Source: Dictyostelium discoideum | Taxonomy: Eukaryota | Direction of reading: 5' to 3' | Assembly: GCA_000004695.1 (NCBI GenBank) | Contig: CM000151.3 | Span: 4,800,001 to 4,864,000 of the forward strand | Length of the DNA: 64,000 nucleotides | Shown here: positions 5,683-51,359 of the stretch, piece by piece | How the letters are laid out: every line of letters starts with the position of its first letter | Numbering within the stretch: the stretch's first letter is position 1 | Notes under the pieces: generated by a model | Told to the model about the DNA's origin: nothing | What the model saw: the letters and a program-made list of their open reading frames with translations, nothing else | The model's database searches: none | Translations under genes and position numbers: made by a program

Positions 5683-5978
5683 ATGATTGTCGAAGTTGAA
5701 TTAGGATTTTTATTATCAACATTATTTTTTACAATTATTTCAATTATTTTATTTTATTTTTTTATTAATAATAAAAATAATTTAATTGATCAATGCCAAG
5801 AAGTAACAAAATTAAATAATAAAGATAATAAAATTGTAAATAATAATAATAATAATTATAATAATAATAATTTTAATAAAATTGAAGAAATTAATGATGA
5901 TAAAAATAAAGAAATTATAAAATTAATTAATAATAGTAATAATAAAAATTTAAAAATTAAAATCCAAGAAATAGATAG

Positions 5979-6030
<52 letters not shown>

Positions 6031-8419
6031 TTAAATAAAAATAGTAATGAAATTTTTAGAAATTTTAAAATATTTAGTGGTTCACTTTTAGTTATTGATC
6101 AAGATTTAAATATTATATCATCATCCGAGAGTGTTAGAGATATTTTCTCAAATATTAATGATATTAATGGTGTGAATCAACAAGTAATTGGTAGTTTACA
6201 AAATTATAGTTTCATAAATTTAGTTCATCAAAAAGATAAAGATAGAGTTTCAACATTTTTAAAATTAAAATTTAAAAATAATAATAATATTAAACATCAA
6301 CAATTTTCTGAAGATATTATTAATGAAAAAGATGAATTAAAAGAAATTCAAATTGAAGATAATAAAGAATTAATTATTATCAATAATAATAATAATAATA
6401 ATAATGATAATGTATTAAAATTTGGAAATAATAATAGTAATAATAGTAGTATTATATTATTTCAAGGAGTTTATCATTTAAATAATACAGATTTATCAAA
6501 ACCATTTAATTTACAAGTTTCAATTTTACCATTTATTTCTGAAAATTATATTGTATTATCATTAAAAGATTTATCACCACCACCATTAAGATTACTTTTA
6601 AATAAAACTTCTTCTGCATTATCACCAAGATCATTATCATCATCTTCATCTTCATCACCATCATCATCGAATAATAATGGTAATACAAACAATAGTGGAT
6701 CATTATCACCAAGATCTTCAAATTCAAATGGTAGTGCAGTTTCACCAAGAAATGTTTCAAGTAATTCAATGTCACCAAGAGGTCAAAATAGTGATCGTAG
6801 TATTTCATCACCAAGAGGTTCATCATCGTCGTCGTCATCATCATCAAATGAATTAGCAATTTCACCTAGAAATAGTAATGGTACAATTTCATCACCAAGA
6901 ACATCAAATCTTTCAATTGAAAGTGTATTAAATAATAAATCAATTGATATGATTTCACATTTATCACATGAACTTAGAACACCAATTCATTCAGTTATTG
7001 CATCTATTCAATTGTTTAGATCAACCATTTTAACAGTTACTCAAAATGAATATTTATCAATTATAGATACATCAGCCAATACATTATTGGAATTGGTATC
7101 CAATGTATTAGATTATAAAAGAATTAGATCAGGAAAGTTAACATTGAATAATGTTGATTTTAATCTTTGTCATGTGATTGAAGATGTTTGTGCAATGGTA
7201 AGTCCACAAGCTCAAGCAAAATCATTACAAATCGCCTCATTTATCTTTATTCATTGTCCATTGAGTTTCTATGGTGATCCAATTAGATTAAGACAAGTTT
7301 TATTGAATTTAATTGGCAATGGTTTAAAGTACACTAATAAAGGTCAAGTTTGTATCTCTGTTGAGCCTGAACAAGTAAATGAACATTGTATGTATTTACA
7401 TTTCCAAGTTAAAGATAGTGGTATCGGTATAAAGGAGGAGAATATGTCAAAATTATTCGCTGGCTTCTCTCAAGTTAATAATGGTGGTACCACACAAGAG
7501 GCATTGGGAAGTGGTTTGGGTTTGGCAATATCCAAGGATTTAGTAGAGTTAATGGGTGGTAAAATTTGGTGTTCTTCAAATGCCACTCAAAATAATGGTG
7601 AAGCTGGTTGTACATTCCATTTCGTTATACCATTGGAAACCAATCCAAAACAATTACCATGTCCAATTCAAAATTTCAATGGTTTATCAGTATTGGTTGT
7701 CGATAAAAATCCATATATTCAAACTGTACTTTGTCAATATTTAGAGGGTTGGAATTGTCAAGTCATTAAAAGTTCCGATATAAAAGAGGCATCAAATAAA
7801 TTAAAAGATCTAAGAAGAGAACAAATTGAAGTGGTTATGATTGATATCGATAATATCGATTTCCGTGATTTCATTCAATTTAAAGATGCTTTTAATCGTT
7901 TGGAATTCGGTAGAATCGGTTTAATTACAATGTCAAGTGATAGATCAATGGTAAATGAAATGGGTTTTGGCACTTCAAAATTAACAAAACCATTCCGTCA
8001 ATCTCATTTAGTAGCTTGTCTATTAGCTAGTATGCCTGAACATTCTTCATCAACTACAAATTGTTTTTCAAATATTGTTGGTATGAATAGTAATATTAAT
8101 AATAATAATAATATTAATAATAATAGTAATAATAATAACAATAATATGCAAACTCATAATAGTAATAGTGTTTATGGTAATGGTAATTATGGTAATTGTA
8201 CTCCATTCTCAAATAACAACAATAGAATTCATATGATGAGTTCAGGTGATAAACCAAGTATTAATAATAGAAGAATGTCAATCTCATTGGGTAAAATTCC
8301 AACTTTTAATTCTGGTGGTTCAAATTCACCAAGAAGTAAAAAATTATTTGAGGAAGTTTTACAACAACAACAACTTCAACAACAACTTCAACAACAACTT
8401 CAACAACAACAACAACTTC

Positions 8420-8470
<51 letters not shown>

Positions 8471-9360
8471 TACAACAACAACAACAACAATTAAATACAA
8501 TTGATGATGATTCAAATAATTATTGTAATACAACAGGTACTATGGATAGTATTGATGAAATTAATAAAAATAATTATAGTGATAGTGAAAGTGATGAATT
8601 AAATGATGATCAAGCACCAATTATAGCACCAGTTCAACAATTATCATTTGGTCGTGTTACTAGAAGACATTCTATTGATATTATTATGTTTGAAAATTCT
8701 AGAGAATTATCAGAATTAAGAAATCTTGAAGATTCAACTAGATATTTGTCACCACGTTCAATGAATAATAATAATGGTAATAATGATAATGGTATCAATG
8801 GTGGTAGTGGAAACTCATTATTTGGATCATCAATTAAAGAAGAGATTGGTGGTACTTCTGATACAAGTTCATTAGCACAATCACCAAATTCATTATCACC
8901 AAGAGCCCCAACAAAGATTATGATATTAGATGATAATCCAGTTAGCTTAAAATTAATGCAACGTATCTTGGAAAGTCGTGGATTCGAATGTTATCCATTC
9001 GATTGCTCAGAGAAAGCCGTTGCTCAATTGGATCAAGTTAATCCTGCCATCATTTTCATGGATTGTGAAATGCCAAAAATGAATGGTTTCGAATGTACTC
9101 AATTAATAAGAAAGAGGGAACAAGAATCACTTTGTCTATTAAAAGATCGTAAGATTATTATTGCTTTGACTGCTCATATTAATCCTGAAATTCAAGTTAA
9201 ATGTTTCGATGCTGGTATGAATGATTTCATCTCAAAACCATTCAAACCACAATGCTTAGAATTAATCCTTAGAAAATGGGAAGATTGTATAAGTAATAAT
9301 CAATTAAATTATAACAATAGTTTAATTAATAATCAAACTACAATTCAAGAGCAAGTTTAA
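5683..9360 (+). CDS. Hybrid sensor histidine kinase (Dictyostelium Dhk family), 1225 aa, single exon.
   Basis: H-box HLSHELRTPIHSV, N-box NLIGNGLKYT, G1 VKDSGIGI, G2 GSGLGLAISKDLVELMGGKIW. The C-terminal receiver domain is IMILDDNPVSLKLMQRIL…IIFMDCEMPKMNGFE…KPF. The N-terminus has a hydrophobic anchor FLLSTLFFTIISIILFYFFI. A degenerate receiver-like segment (LSVLVVDKNPY…VVMIDIDN) sits between the kinase core and the true receiver. Long poly-N, poly-S and poly-Q tracts are present. Which Dhk paralog this is cannot be decided from sequence alone. Confidence 0.9.
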
Positions 9361-24885: not shown

Positions 24886-24948
24886 ATATAATATAAAATA
24901 TAAAATATAAAATATAAAATATAAAATATAAAATATAAAATATAAAAT
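24886..24948. repeat. (ATAAAAT)n heptanucleotide repeat abutting the bZIP start codon
   Basis: aatataaaatataaaat… repeated about 9 times, ending in ATG. Confidence 0.9.
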
Positions 24949-25156
24949 GGTTGAATTAGAATCAATGTCATCATCAAGCGAATGGTTTTTAAATAATAAC
25001 AGTAATATTCATAATAATACACACAATCATAATCATAATAATAATAATAACAATAATAATATAAATAGTAATAATCACGGCCATAGTGCAAATAGTAGTG
25101 CACACAACCACAACAACAATAATAATAATAATACCAATAATAATAGCAACAATAGC

Positions 25157-25194
<38 letters not shown>

Positions 25195-25762
25195 ACAAAA
25201 TACAAATAATGGTACATTTTTAACACCATTACCTGTATTAACTAATAGTAGTACTGGTTTGGGAAAAAGTATTGATTGGTTATATACAAACACCTCAAAT
25301 ACCGACTCACATAATATAAATTCAAGTAGTAATAAAGTTACAAAACTTTCAAATGGATTTTCTTTATTAAATCAAGATGGTACTCAATCACCATCATGCT
25401 TTTTAAATTTATCCTCAACTGGTAACCACGAAGATCCTGTACAAGTTCCAATGAACAATAATCCACAAGATCTCTTATTCCAATTTAATATTTCACCACA
25501 ATTACAATCACAAAATAATAATAGTAGTAATAATAATAATAACAATAATAACAATGGTAGTAATACTCCATTAAATGGTAGTAATGGTAGTAATAATAAT
25601 TATTCATCACCAATTTCACCAGTACCACAATACCAACACTCTGCTGGTTCTTCACCAATCCAAGAGTATCCATATTATTCACCATCATCATCACCCCATT
25701 CAAATGAATCAACCTCACCAATTACAGTTATTAAAGATAGTGGTAGTATTATAAATCCAATC

Positions 25763-25815
<53 letters not shown>

Positions 25816-26902
25816 TAATAATAACAATAATAATAATAATAAAAACAATTTAAATAATAATACATTCCAATTTTCATCATTAAAAAGTACAACTGGTATT
25901 GCACCACCATTACAAACCGATTATCATTTATTATATAATTTTGTTCAACAAAATTTTTCTGGAAAACCAGAAGATTCATTATTAAACCAAACTTTAAATA
26001 ATAATAATAATAATAATAATAACAATAATAATAATAATAATAATACAACAATCCAAACTTCACCACAACCACTTGTTTTACCACAAATTCAAAATCCATT
26101 TTTACCATATAATATTTCGACTCCAATTTCAGTTCCAAATAATATTTTATCATCAGCTCAATCATCAACAAATTCATCACCAAACAACAACAACAATAAT
26201 AATAATAATAATAACAATATTTTTTCAACTGTTAATAATAATAATAATCTCGTAAATAATAACAGTAATAATATGGAATTAGATGTAGATAAACCATTTT
26301 CACAAGAAAAATTTTATTTACACTTAAAATCAATTGTACCAAGTTTTAATGAAAATTTTGAAGCATCATCTGAATCTGCACAATCTGAATCATCTCAAGA
26401 AAGTGATTATGATGCACTCAATGAACGTAATAGTGGTGTTAAGAAGAGAGGTAGAGATGAAGATCAAATCGATACATCTGGTCAAGTTGTTTTATCACGT
26501 GAACATGTTTTGAAATTATCAAGTAAAGAAATTGAAGAATATGTTTCACGTTTAAAGATGCACCATATTCTTACTCAAGCCGAGGAAAAAGAATTGAAAA
26601 AACAAAGACGTTTAGTAAAGAATCGTGAATATGCTTCACAATCTCGTTCTCGTAGAAAGATTTATGTTGAGAATATTGAAACAAAACTTCAAAAAACAAA
26701 TCAAGATTGTGCTTCAATTAAATCTCAATTAAATTCAGTTAAAGAGGAAAATAAAGCCTTAAAGAAACAATTGTACAGTTTAACTAATACTCTTAAAAGT
26801 AATCCTTCTTTAGCTGAAGCATTTGGAAAAATTTTCTCTCCAATAGGTAATAATAAAACTTCTTCTGCTACATTATTTGTAAGTTTTATTTATTTAATTT
26901 TA

Positions 26903-26943
<41 letters not shown>

Positions 26944-27492
26944 AAATAAAAAAAATATACTAACTTTTTTATAATTTTTAGGTATTTTTCTTTTTATTTA
27001 CATTTACATTTTTATTCCAATCTTCTACAGTTACCTTTAATTCAGAGTATGTTTTATTTTTTTTTAAAATACCATTAGCGTTCATAAAATTTATATTAAT
27101 TTTTTTTTTTTTTCTCTTTTTATAGTAGGGTATCTTCAATTCAACGTAATCTTTTAAGTTTAGAAGAAACTCAAGCAACAGAATGGAACATAAAGAGAGC
27201 CATTCTTGAAGAAACTAAACAATATGTCGATTCTTTGTTAACCTCCTTATATACTTCAAAACTACAATCTTTATCAGAAACTCCTTTAGATACATCTAAT
27301 TATATCATCAACAACAACAATAACGAATCAACTTCCGAAACAACAACAAACAACAAAGTAGTTTCGACATCTAGTGATGATATTTCAAATGTTTTATCAA
27401 ATCTTTCTGTTTCCGATAAAGAAGTTCCTCAAAAGTGTAAAGATTCATCTGATTTAAAATGTGATTCTCCCCCACTTTCACCTTTAAATTAA
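24947..27492 (+). CDS. bZIP transcription factor. Proposed exons 24947..26878, 26982..27046 and 27126..27492; only exon 1 is certain.
   Basis: Canonical bZIP basic region KKQRRLVKNREYASQSRSRRK followed by a leucine zipper (L-x6-L heptads: LQKTNQDCASIKSQLNSVKEENKALKKQLYSL). Long poly-N tracts precede it. Exon 1 ends at GTAAGT (26879). Intron 1 is 103 nt and has TACTAAC at 26958..26964 and acceptor TTTTTAG. Inferred exon 2 encodes the hydrophobic segment VFFFLFTFTFLFQSSTVTFNS. A GTATGT donor at 27047 joins in phase to an acceptor at 27124/27127 and the ORF …RVSSIQRNLLSLEETQATEWNIKRAILEE…SPLN*. Confidence 0.6.
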
Positions 27493-28600
27493 TAAAATTT
27501 TTATTTATTGTTTCATAAATTTTTTTTAGGTTAATCATTTAATCACTTTTTTGTTTAAATATTTCATTTTTTTTTTTTTAACCTTTAATAATATCTTTAC
27601 TACACCCTCATTTAACCCAGTTTTTTATCAATAAAATGACCATAAGATGATTTACAATTGTCTAATGATTGAATATAATTAATATTTACGAAAATGTTAG
27701 AAAAAAATTTAATAATTAATTTTTTACTTAAATTATTTTTTTTAATTAATAATATATTATTTTTATATTTGTTTGTATATATGTCTGTAATACTATAAAT
27801 TGTTATTTATTAGGCATACCCTCTTTTGTAATATTATACATGAGAATGAACAATATTATATACAGAATTATATATTTAATTACAGAAAAAATATAACAAA
27901 CTTTAACTGAGTATTTAAATTTTTTTTGATATTTTTTATATTTTTTTATATATACATAGCCTTCATTTATTTTTTAAGGTAATTAATTTCAAAACAAGAA
28001 AGAATTCTTGAAAAAAAAAAAAAAACTACTTTTATTTCTTTTTTTATTTTCAATTGATCAATCAACAATAACCAATAAAAAGAATAATAAAAAGAATAAA
28101 AAGTAAATGTGAAAAAAAGTTACTATAAAGCAACTAATAATATTTTATTTTTTATTTTTTCAAATTAAACACAATTTTTTTTTTATGTTCCCACCACGAT
28201 TAGTTAATGTTTTTGTGGTGAATTGATGAATTATAAGATTATACCAAAATTATTTTTTATATATTTAATGTACGGATTGTTTTTGATTGATGAGAACAAT
28301 TTAAATAAAAATCAAATTAAAAAAAGTTAATTATATTTTAATTTTTTTATTTTTTAATTTTTTTTTTTGTTTTAATTTCCCCCAACACAAATTTTTTTTT
28401 TTTTTAAAAAATTTTGGTTTTAATGAAAATCGATGTTCCATTGAAATTTTTAGTTGTGTTTGTGAAAAATACTATTTATTTTTTTATAAAATTGAATAAA
28501 AAAAATCCCAAAGAAAAAAAATAAATAAAAAAATAATAATTTATTTTTATTTTTATTTTTTTATTTTTTTATTTTTTTTTTTTTTTTAATTTGTAGTCAA

Positions 28601-48527: not shown

Positions 48528-48960
48528 TTAAATATTTGGTTTAATAACAACTATAACATCATTATTTGATATATTAAAATCATTTGGGGTTAGATGAGGT
48601 GGTAGTTCAAGGCCGTTGTATTGAAATTTAAGTACATATTCAGTGGTAATTCCTAACTTTTGATAAATTTGACACATTAATTTACAAAGTAGAGCTTTGT
48701 TTGAAATTTTGAATACTAATTCTTCATTTAAATGATTGATATGACATTTAATATGAATAAAATGTTTTTCATTATCTTTACAAGTTGTATTTGTACTTGA
48801 GTTTGTATTTTCATTTTTATCATTTGAAAAAGTTTGTTGCTTTTCTTTTTCTTGTTCTTGAAGTGATGTTGATGTTTGTGGAATAGGGGTGAAGTTATTA
48901 TTAAGTTGTTGATTTTGTAATTCATTTGTAGTAAATTCATTATTATTATTTTTATTATCA

Positions 48961-49029
<69 letters not shown>

Positions 49030-49921
49030 TTTTTATTATTATTATTATTATCATTTGTATTATTATTATAATTATTATTATCATTTGTATTATTATAATT
49101 TGTAATTATATTATTAATAGTTTGAATTGGATTTAAACCAAAAGTCCAAATTGAAAGATTGGGTTGATCATTAAAGAATTTGGTATATAAATCCAAAGTG
49201 AAATAAAATCTTTCTAATTTAAATTTTTTTAATTGTCCAATTGAGATCATTTCAAAATTACCACCATCAATTGACATTGAGTTTGAGTATACTAAATTTA
49301 AACCGATTTGATCACAAAATTCTTTATAGATCTTAAGGTTTTCATAATGTTTTCTCCAAATTTCATCTAAAAAGTGAGGTGAAAAAATAAACTTTGAAAA
49401 TAAACCTTTTTCAAATACTTTTAATGTTAAGAATCTTGTGTATTCAGATTTGAAAATATTATATACTTTACTTGGTACATCCAATTCTTGTAAAATGTCT
49501 GCAATATTTATAGTTTTGTAAATCTTTCTTTCAATATCTAAAATTTCAATTCTCTTATTTAGTTTGTTTTCAAAAAATGAAATTTCAGAATCTAATTGTG
49601 ATGGAAATAATGAATTGGCTTCATTTGTACTTTTTGGTTTTTTAAATTCTACAATTGATAATTCTAATGATTCGGATTCACTAACTAACTCATTGTTAAT
49701 ACCATTTTCTGTTGTTGTTGCTGTTGCTGTTGTTGTTGTTGTTGTTGTCGTTTTAATGTTATTCTCTTCTGACTGCTTCATTATTTTACTTTCTTCATTA
49801 TTTTCATCTTTACCATTATAACTATCGTTAACTTTATTATTATTAGTTTGATTTATCTTTTTTAATTTTGTTGTTTGTTCTTCCTCAAAGGAGTTTTGTC
49901 TCTTCTTATTTCTGTTATGTA

Positions 49922-49973
<52 letters not shown>

Positions 49974-51359
49974 TTGATTATTATTATTATTATGATTATT
50001 ATTTTGATTATTATTTTGATTATTATTAAGAATAGATTCCCAAGGATTACCAGTTAATAAAAGTTTATAATAGGATTTTGGAGTGTCAGATGATTTATTT
50101 TCAGAGAAAATTTTTTGATTCGATAAAACTCTCTCTAATTTTGGTTTAAAAATATCTAATGAAAGATCTTGATTGATTAAACCAAGTAAATGTTTATGAA
50201 GATTAATGTAACCAATTAAATATTCTTTTTTAATGTATCCTCTTTCTTCATGAAAATTTCTTGAATTTAATTGCTGATGTAAAGCAAATGCAGAAATTGA
50301 TACAACCTTTTCAAATAAATAACTTGTTGGTGATAGTAAACCTTGTACCAATATTGGTGGTTTACCATATAAACATAAATAACATCTACAAACTAATATT
50401 ACATTTGGTAATGTTATATAAAATGAATTTTGGTTTGCTTTGATTTTACACTGATTGCAATGACATATTGGTTCATATGTTGGTAAATGAAAATTTTCTA
50501 ATCTTATCTCACTACTATTGCTCTTGCCACCACTAACACTTCCACTGCTGACATTACCACTCCTACTTCTACTCCTACTTATAATTCCACTACCAGCAAT
50601 ATTATTATTATTATTACTATTATTATTATTATCTTCACTATTATCTGATAATAACTGATTTAATTTACTTAATGTGTTAGGAATTCTAGATTCTAAAAAG
50701 TATTGGTATATAAGTTTTAATCTATTTAAATCAAAAGTATTTTTTAAATGTTGAGTTTCGGCATCAAATTTTTTAAATAGTTTTATTCTTGTCTTTATTT
50801 CATTGTCAGGAAAGGTGTCAACTATTTTACCTTTCCACATGTATGTATGATGATAGTCTCCATTATGACCACAAATAACCATTTGTATTTTACTTGATAT
50901 TAATTTTTTATCTGTTTCATTATTTTCAATATCTGTTACATCATTTTCAATATTAATTTCATGTTCATCATAATCATTATTATCATCATCTTCTTCTTTT
51001 TCTTCTTTTTCTTCTTTTTCTTCTTTTTCTTTTTCTTCTTTTTCTTCTTCTTCTACTACTACTAATTCTTCTTGTTCTTCTTTGATATGATTGTCTCTAT
51101 TATTAGCGGTGGTATTAATTTTATTTAAATTTTTAATTTTAGTTTCAGTTTGGTGTAAATTATTATCATCATCAATATCTTGAGTTTCATTGGAATTGCT
51201 TGCATGGTTTAAACTACTAAGTTTTCTTCTTATCCTTTTTAAAATTGAATTTCTCATACCACTATTATCTAAACCTAATTGTTTAGCTGCTTCTCTTATA
51301 TTTAGGTATGAGAGTTTTTCAATCTCTATATAATCTAAATGGAAAACATTTTTAGACAT
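48528..51359 (-). CDS. SAP-domain protein with a C-terminal ubiquitin-like (SUMO/Rad60-SLD-type) domain, 943 aa
   Basis: N-terminal SAP motif LSYLNIREAAKQLGLDNSGMRNSILKRIRRKL. An acidic EEKE repeat and poly-N follow. The C-terminal beta-grasp-like segment is FIHIKCHINHLNEELVFKISNKALLCKLMCQIYQKLGITTEYVLKFQYNGLELPPHLTPNDFNISNNDVIVVI. Single ORF. Confidence 0.75.

Follow-up and report, generated by a model that had tools for sequence, protein, structure and literature searches.

What kind of transcription factor is encoded where a bZIP domain is followed, across AT-rich introns, by a hydrophobic segment and a further reading frame? The question is raised by a gene in a 64-kb window of Dictyostelium discoideum DNA (contig CM000151.3, positions 4,800,001 to 4,864,000; the window is the whole stretch analysed, and its first letter is position 1), for which a preliminary description had proposed a bZIP factor anchored in the membrane in the manner of ATF6 or CREB3. 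With a probability of roughly 0.6, our analysis favors a type II membrane-tethered bZIP transcription factor that would be released by regulated proteolysis. Systems of this type are well known in animals and plants; what is new here is an amoebozoan member with an unusual DNA-binding module, and a conserved R-x-L-L element beyond the predicted helix, which is of the consensus type of site-1 protease (S1P) and a candidate for cleavage.

Gene structure, predicted membrane helix and luminal tail

A three-exon gene model, together with membrane anchoring of its product, is in our judgment highly probable. Its parts are as follows.

24947..26878, + strand: exon 1, an open reading frame from the ATG at 24947 with a phase-0 end at the GTAAGT donor, exactly 644 codons; it holds a region rich in Asn, Gln and Ser (N/Q/S-rich) at the N-terminus, the bZIP domain and the first four residues of the predicted membrane helix (ATLF)
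26879..26981, + strand: intron 1, 103 nucleotides (nt), phase 0, 5.8% G+C, parting …TLF from VFF… within the region coding for the membrane helix
26982..27046, + strand: exon 2, 65 nt, encoding VFFFLFTFTFLFQSSTVTFNS plus 2 nt, that is, the remainder of the membrane helix (VFFFLFTFTFLF, 26982-27017) and a juxtamembrane luminal linker
27047..27125, + strand: intron 2, 79 nt, phase 2, with a GTATGT donor at 27047, 13.9% G+C and a tandem acceptor TATAG|TAG
27126..27492, + strand: exon 3, predicted luminal tail, starting in phase (GA|T, Asp) and ending in the stop TAA at 27490-27492
27145..27156, + strand: RNLL, amino acids (aa) 673-676, candidate motif of S1P type, 16 residues after the helix
27181..27252, + strand: predicted luminal helix EWNIKRAILEETKQYVDSLLTSLY, aa 685-708, conserved in dictyostelid orthologues (…ILEETKxY/F…)

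The donor at 26879, the 103-nt intron, the 65-nt exon and the donor at 27047 named in the preliminary description are all present in the sequence, and the third reading frame is joined in phase and stays open to its stop, as had been claimed. Also present are the TACTAAC (26958-26964) and, 17 nt further on, the acceptor TTTTTAG|G of intron 1, which moreover contains an A-run. All three exons join in frame to a conceptual product of 787 aa, with a G+C content of 21-30% in the exons as opposed to 6-14% in the introns, in a window of very AT-rich, Dictyostelium-type DNA. An alternative acceptor of intron 2, at 27129 instead of 27126, is also in frame (…FNSEVSS…), and the tandem acceptor of NAGNAG type (27121-27128) is kept in Dictyostelium purpureum (positions 2078-2085 of the GL871350.1 piece). 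An AATAAA at 27491-27496 overlaps the stop codon of exon 3. At the other end, a tandem repeat of about seven copies of ATATAAAAT (24890-24946) abuts the start codon.

The relatives of the gene bear directly on this model. The D. purpureum orthologue XP_003293287, with 54% identity over 99% of the C-terminal 344 aa, is annotated with both introns at identical positions and phases, and Acytostelium subglobosum has a phase-0 intron between …SLF and VF… plus a phase-2 intron a few codons before RxLL, so that the gene model of the preliminary description gains support from both species. Cavenderia fasciculata has no intron 1 and carries the bZIP and the hydrophobic helix in one uninterrupted exon, which makes their linkage independent of any splice prediction; its second intron is kept, and the phase-2 intron a few codons 5' of RxLL is thereby common to all three relatives. 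The same order of parts is found in transcript-derived proteins of Physarum polycephalum, Vermistella, Luapelamoeba and many soil metatranscriptome contigs, and the encoded C-terminal peptide is conserved across Amoebozoa. AT-rich DNA of this kind abounds in splice-like hexamers, but the conservation of the introns in relatives and of the peptide argues for more than chance. Exons and introns, both being AT-rich, cannot be told apart by the nucleotide identity of D. discoideum to D. purpureum, and this measure was not used as evidence. Concerning the public models themselves, that of D. purpureum (372 aa) looks truncated at its N-terminus: the frame is open upstream (1-1260 of the GL871350.1 piece) and reaches MVEVESLSNSNSW…, matching the N-terminus MVELESMSSSSEW… of the D. 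discoideum protein and a conserved SPIQ island. The model of Heterostelium album, XP_020430780, is 1131 aa long and has 692 residues past the membrane helix, compared with 118-168 in other dictyostelids; it is probably an annotation fusion with the neighbouring gene.

The hydrophobic run ATLFVFFFLFTFTFLF (aa 641-656) straddles the junction of exons 1 and 2. The stretch of about 17 residues announced in the preliminary description is thus present, but it comprises 16 residues and is not encoded wholly by exon 2. A transmembrane prediction had been called for there, and both our hydrophobicity and insertion-energy scans return this segment as the sole candidate helix of the protein, with a Kyte-Doolittle maximum of 2.17 over 17 residues and an approximate insertion energy of about -2 kcal/mol, compared with +11 for the next best segment. 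In the family alignment the L and F positions of the helix are at least 90% conserved. Lys residues lie on its N-terminal side in all orthologues, which, by the positive-inside rule, fits an N-in, type II orientation. Most likely, a single C-terminal helix anchors the protein in the membrane of the endoplasmic reticulum (ER) in type II fashion.

The 131 aa past the helix contain two Cys and two N-x-S/T sequons and match no Pfam family. The RNLL motif lies in the local sequence IQRNLLSLEE, and most of the 21 homologues of a first search round have an R-x-[LVI]-L 14-25 residues past the helix (RNLL, RHLL, RSLL, RRLL, RYLL, RVLL); the Arg of the motif is at least 90% conserved in the trimmed family alignment. 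Of the 145 family members whose helix is followed by 40 residues or more, 60 contain R.LL, compared with 3.0 ± 1.7 in shuffles of the same 60-residue segments (shuffle maximum 9). Its position peaks 15-25 aa after the helix, and Glu or Asp follows. S1P substrates carry R-x-(hydrophobic)-L at the same spacing from the membrane, namely RHLL in ATF6, RSVL in SREBP2, RSLL in OASIS and RRLL/RRIL in plant bZIP17/28. An equivalent layout, …SFCLILSPS…ELRVLS…, came up in our homology search in bird CREB3 fragments, as did …RSRTLLQ… in an unnamed CREB3-like protein. An AlphaFold2 model of the D. purpureum orthologue (30 sequences, mean predicted local distance difference test, pLDDT, of 67) has two short helices ahead of the basic region; basic region and zipper form one unbroken helix (pLDDT above 90), the hydrophobic segment is helical as well, RNLL falls in a low-confidence loop, and a luminal helix EWKRAILEETKQYIDNLV… (residues 267-297 of the model, pLDDT about 90) follows.

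The DNA-binding module and its amoebozoan family

To which bZIPs is this protein related? Residues 1 to about 500 are N/Q/S-rich, with short islands conserved among dictyostelids, and are followed by the part that can be compared more widely.

26516..26776, + strand: DNA-binding and dimerisation module, aa 524-610, with a Maf-type extended homology region, basic region and zipper
26621..26647, + strand: basic-region signature NREYASQSR, aa 559-567, with a Tyr in place of the Ser found in most bZIPs

The best-scoring Pfam model is bZIP_Maf (aa 524-610, 37 bits against a cut-off of 22, E 5.1e-9, profile positions 6-89 of 92); bZIP_1 matches aa 547-609 (33 bits against a cut-off of 27.6, E 6.5e-8). 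The domain had been called a textbook bZIP, and it does pass both cut-offs, but its zipper is not very leucine-rich: read from the sequence, the d positions are I, T, I, V, L, L, with only two Leu among six. Within NREYASQSR, seven of nine positions are invariant in the family alignments, and two vary (aa 554 and 555, S and Q).

Both the protein and the family profile find their best match among PDB sequences in a CREB3-like chain, 6iak_A (E 1.5e-12 for the family profile), which spans the CREB3-style N-terminal extension of the basic region (LT.AEE..LKK.RR), with LTQAEEKELKKQRRLVKN aligned to LTKAEERLLKKVRRKIRN. The entry 6iak_A is deposited as an 'Uncharacterized protein' (441 aa), and from the bZIP to the helix it shares 95% identity with a bird CREB3 fragment; by its sequence, it is a CREB3-type membrane bZIP. 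Aligned with hhalign against a small CREB3 alignment, the family reaches 99% probability and E 9e-18 over 82 columns, and this alignment ends before the helix. The Mafs rank second: MafG and MafB (E 3e-10; 3.4e-10 for MafG) align with the family profile right from where the Maf extended homology region begins, MafG through to the zipper, and NRGYAASCR of MafG falls on NREYASQSR. Of the Maf signature NxxYAxxCR the Tyr is present, and Ser replaces the Cys. The traits of the OASIS family have been given as a Tyr at bZIP position 27 and a basic-region signature NKxSAxxSR (PMC4736632). The D. discoideum protein has the former, as Tyr573, and, its basic region reading NREYASQSR and not NKxSAxxSR, we do not count it as a member of the CREB3/OASIS family. 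Other searches were less telling: a Foldseek comparison of the orthologue model with the PDB gave no match with E <1, its top hit, the NF-E2 DNA-binding domain, not being significant, and a word-index profile search returned no ATF6, CREB3 or bZIP28, only amoebozoan or environmental sequences, fish XBP1 (weakly) and one plant bZIP. On these alignments, the protein is CREB3/ATF6-like in architecture and has a DNA-binding module that mixes CREB3-like with Maf-like features, and we file it in neither family.

Homologues with the same layout are numerous. In the first round, the basic motif is found in 21 of 21, and the helix follows 73-140 aa after it in all but one frameshift-like fragment. An exhaustive search of 1.84 billion cluster representatives with a hidden Markov model, whose profile had the exon-1 part of the D. 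discoideum protein as its first row, yielded 95 proteins at E ≤1e-30 and 1171 at E ≤1e-10. The top matches include 129 new proteins with the basic motif, and in 119 of these a strong hydrophobic helix follows the motif; in the members listed, the two lie about 75-120 residues apart, apart from a single outlier at 152. All named members belong to Amoebozoa (Heterostelium, Polysphondylium, Vermistella, Luapelamoeba, Dictyostelium, Acytostelium, Cavenderia and Physarum), and several come from transcriptomes. One subgroup, with NREYA in the basic region, includes the D. discoideum gene; its luminal tails are short, and 53 of 75 members have R.[LVI]L. In the NRESA subgroup most tails are longer (roughly 170-340 residues), 24 of 70 members have the motif, and a helix motif (…CLLIVLFSFGLFFN) is very conserved; this subgroup looks nearer to ATF6 or bZIP28 in size. 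Membrane-tethered bZIPs thus appear to be widespread in Amoebozoa, which bears on the age of this signalling design.

Proposed release from the membrane and its alternatives

How would such a protein reach the nucleus? By analogy with ATF6, CREB3/OASIS and plant bZIP17/28, the N-terminal activation region and the bZIP would face the cytosol, the helix at aa 641-656 would lie in the ER membrane and the 131-aa tail in the lumen. On a signal, for which ER or secretory stress is the obvious candidate, the precursor would exit from the ER; a subtilisin-type protease of S1P specificity would then cut after RNLL, in a flexible loop, and the shortened stub would be cut within the membrane, so that an N-terminal fragment of about 640 aa could pass to the nucleus and bind DNA as a dimer. 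The order of bZIP, transmembrane segment and luminal tail, on which the preliminary description had built, finds support in the dictyostelid orthologues, the transcript-derived homologues, the conserved RxLL and the CREB3-like nearest structure. Topology, ER residence, cleavage, proteases, signal and target genes are inferred. Release by S1P and by site-2 protease (S2P), or by enzymes of their type, seems on the whole a probable route, while a role as an ATF6-like stress sensor is put forward only tentatively.

Several observations weigh against this scheme. About half of the wider family has no clear RxLL, and the tail has no similarity to the ATF6 luminal sensor domain, as judged by its length of 131 aa and the missing Pfam match. 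The D. discoideum helix has no internal Asn or Pro, residues that are needed within the membrane helix for S2P cleavage of ATF6 and SREBP; in orthologue helices, Pro (…FLFP, …LLP) or Asn (…FWDN, …LFFN) occurs only at the luminal end. No statement on S1P or S2P in Dictyostelium was found in the searchable literature. On the side of the gene model, the D. discoideum splice junctions are inferred from conservation, and an exact look-up of the 787-aa product in a collection of 15 billion proteins found it absent. D. discoideum's own proteins never surfaced among the matches of our homology searches; the gene may be one of the bzp genes, which the supplementary tables of PMC6873476 list without a means of mapping them to the window.

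Would other readings accommodate these points better? The protein could be tethered and its active form made otherwise, through skipping of exon 2, extraction and clipping by the proteasome or DDI as in Nrf1, or cleavage by rhomboid, signal peptide peptidase or presenilin. Speaking for such routes are the lack of internal Asn or Pro in the helix, the putative status of S1P and S2P in dictyostelids, and the Maf/CNC-like features of the DNA-binding region, the CNC factor Nrf1 being itself ER-tethered and released without S1P or S2P. Exon 2 skipping, in particular, would place an in-frame TAG directly after …TLF and yield a soluble 644-aa bZIP in both D. discoideum and D. purpureum, an immediate stop that is due in both species to the conserved tandem acceptor TATAG|TAG. 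As a family-wide mechanism, however, skipping is excluded by Cavenderia, which has no intron in the helix-coding region; Nrf1 has its anchor helix at the N-terminus and not at the C-terminus; and the position-specific conservation of RxLL past the helix is hard to explain without a luminal protease. We consider this group of routes rather unlikely. Less credit still goes to a factor that remains bound for good to the ER or the inner nuclear membrane and there binds DNA or sequesters partner bZIPs. Architecture alone is no proof of release, and with a short helix of 16 residues and a small tail the protein could in principle diffuse to the inner nuclear membrane, but the conserved RxLL in a predicted flexible loop speaks against permanent tethering, as does the fact that, to our knowledge, all characterised bZIPs with the order bZIP, helix and luminal tail are released by proteolysis.

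Two further readings would do away with the membrane form altogether or make it conditional on RNA processing. Exon 1 could by itself encode a soluble nuclear bZIP, through intron retention or intronic polyadenylation, with the hydrophobic exon a T-rich accident. Indeed, read-through of intron 1 is open to 26974 (an open reading frame of 675 aa), AATAAA-like strings occur in AT-rich introns, and T-rich DNA readily gives Phe-rich peptides (TTT encoding Phe). Yet conservation of the helix, RxLL and the luminal helix extends across Amoebozoa, to GC-richer species and transcript-derived sequences as well; taken together with the shared intron positions and the contiguity of helix and bZIP in Cavenderia, this makes a soluble exon-1 protein very unlikely as the main product. 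The gene might, finally, be the missing substrate of IreA (IRE1), with an unconventional cytoplasmic splicing like that of XBP1 or bZIP60 removing the hydrophobic segment or shifting it out of frame. Plant bZIP60 likewise has a bZIP followed by a transmembrane helix, and fish XBP1 is a weak match of the family profile; the target bZIP of IreA in Dictyostelium is, according to a 2018 review of ER stress in this organism, unidentified. Against this, a scan of the spliced and unspliced transcript for CNGNNGN found four bare heptamers, none of them closed by a stem of at least 3 bp and none near the helix, and the conserved luminal RxLL argues for proteolysis, so that we give the IreA reading hardly any weight.

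Tethering with release by regulated proteolysis would gain its significance from what is missing in Dictyostelium, a model for ER stress with IreA as its one known branch and with many ER chaperone genes whose response does not depend on IreA. The review of 2018 states that orthologues of ATF6 and PERK were not identified, that the 19 bZIPs should be characterised in the search for functional homologues of ATF6 or XBP1, and that an IRE1-independent branch is still missing. A survey of dictyostelid transcription factors mentions transmembrane domains for the MrfA family only, and in the searchable literature, which covers few subscription journals, we found no membrane-tethered bZIP described in Dictyostelium, an earlier mention elsewhere being possible; the remark in the preliminary description that this architecture is not generally appreciated there agrees with these sources. 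With a conserved helix, a motif of S1P type, a definable point mutation of RNLL and a haploid, genetically tractable host, the locus offers a concrete candidate on which the question of an IreA-independent stress branch becomes directly testable. It is conceivable, if far from assured, that the gene and its family constitute the missing arm of ER or secretory stress signalling in Dictyostelium, of ATF6 type and independent of IreA, with an ancestral release of S1P/S2P type. If this were true, such release of membrane bZIPs would go back to the ancestor that amoebozoans share with opisthokonts and, because plants have bZIP17/28, perhaps to that of all eukaryotes. It would have been coupled in that ancestor to a module joining Maf-type features (extended homology region and basic-region Tyr) with CREB3-type features, which would place the origin of a Maf-like module outside animals.

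Elsewhere in the window, Pfam identifies the following genes.

5683-9360, + strand: hybrid histidine kinase (HisKA, HATPase_c and receiver domains), 1225 aa
35320-39855, + strand: ComC-type protein with EGF repeats, 1511 aa
62329-63996, - strand: prolyl oligopeptidase

Further genes encode an amino-acid transporter, a GFO/IDH/MocA oxidoreductase, and LRR, RRM, PARP-domain and FNIP-repeat proteins. An open reading frame of 943 aa (48528-51359, - strand) has no Pfam match, and there are no tRNA genes in the 64 kb.

Comparison with known membrane-tethered and Maf-type factors

Set beside the known systems, the D. discoideum protein shares most with CREB3/OASIS (CREB3 and CREB3L1-4). The order of an extended basic region (LT.xEE..LKK.RR), zipper, linker of about 20-40 aa and single helix is the same, as are a short luminal tail, with R-x-[LV]-L about 20 aa from its start, and the Tyr at bZIP position 27 (PMC4736632), and the nearest solved chain, 6iak_A, belongs to this side. 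It differs in its basic region, NREYASQSR instead of NKxSAxxSR, and in the 30 residues upstream, which align with the Maf extended homology region and not with CREB3; the profile-profile alignment ends before the helix, and we claim no orthology.

ATF6 and plant bZIP17 and bZIP28 are likewise type II bZIPs with a luminal RxxL or RxLL 15-30 aa after the helix. They differ from the present protein in the lumen, where the sensor domains of ATF6 and bZIP28 measure roughly 270 aa and the D. discoideum protein has a tail of 131 aa that matches nothing in Pfam; from tail length alone, strict orthology to ATF6 is unlikely, and the Maf-like features of the DNA-binding region also set the protein apart. 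The absence of internal Asn and Pro from the helix is a further difference.

The Maf and CNC factors (MafG, MafB, NF-E2 and Nrf1/2) share the extended homology region and the basic-region Tyr. Mafs, however, are soluble and have Cys before the final Arg, where the D. discoideum protein has Ser, and Nrf1 is anchored by its N-terminus and released independently of S1P and S2P. Within Dictyostelium itself the closest parallel is MrfA, the MYRF orthologue, which is the sole membrane-tethered transcription factor of this organism in the searchable literature. It is tethered as our protein is predicted to be, but binds DNA with a domain of the Ndt80 type, frees itself by auto-proteolysis, and has neither a bZIP nor an RxLL site.

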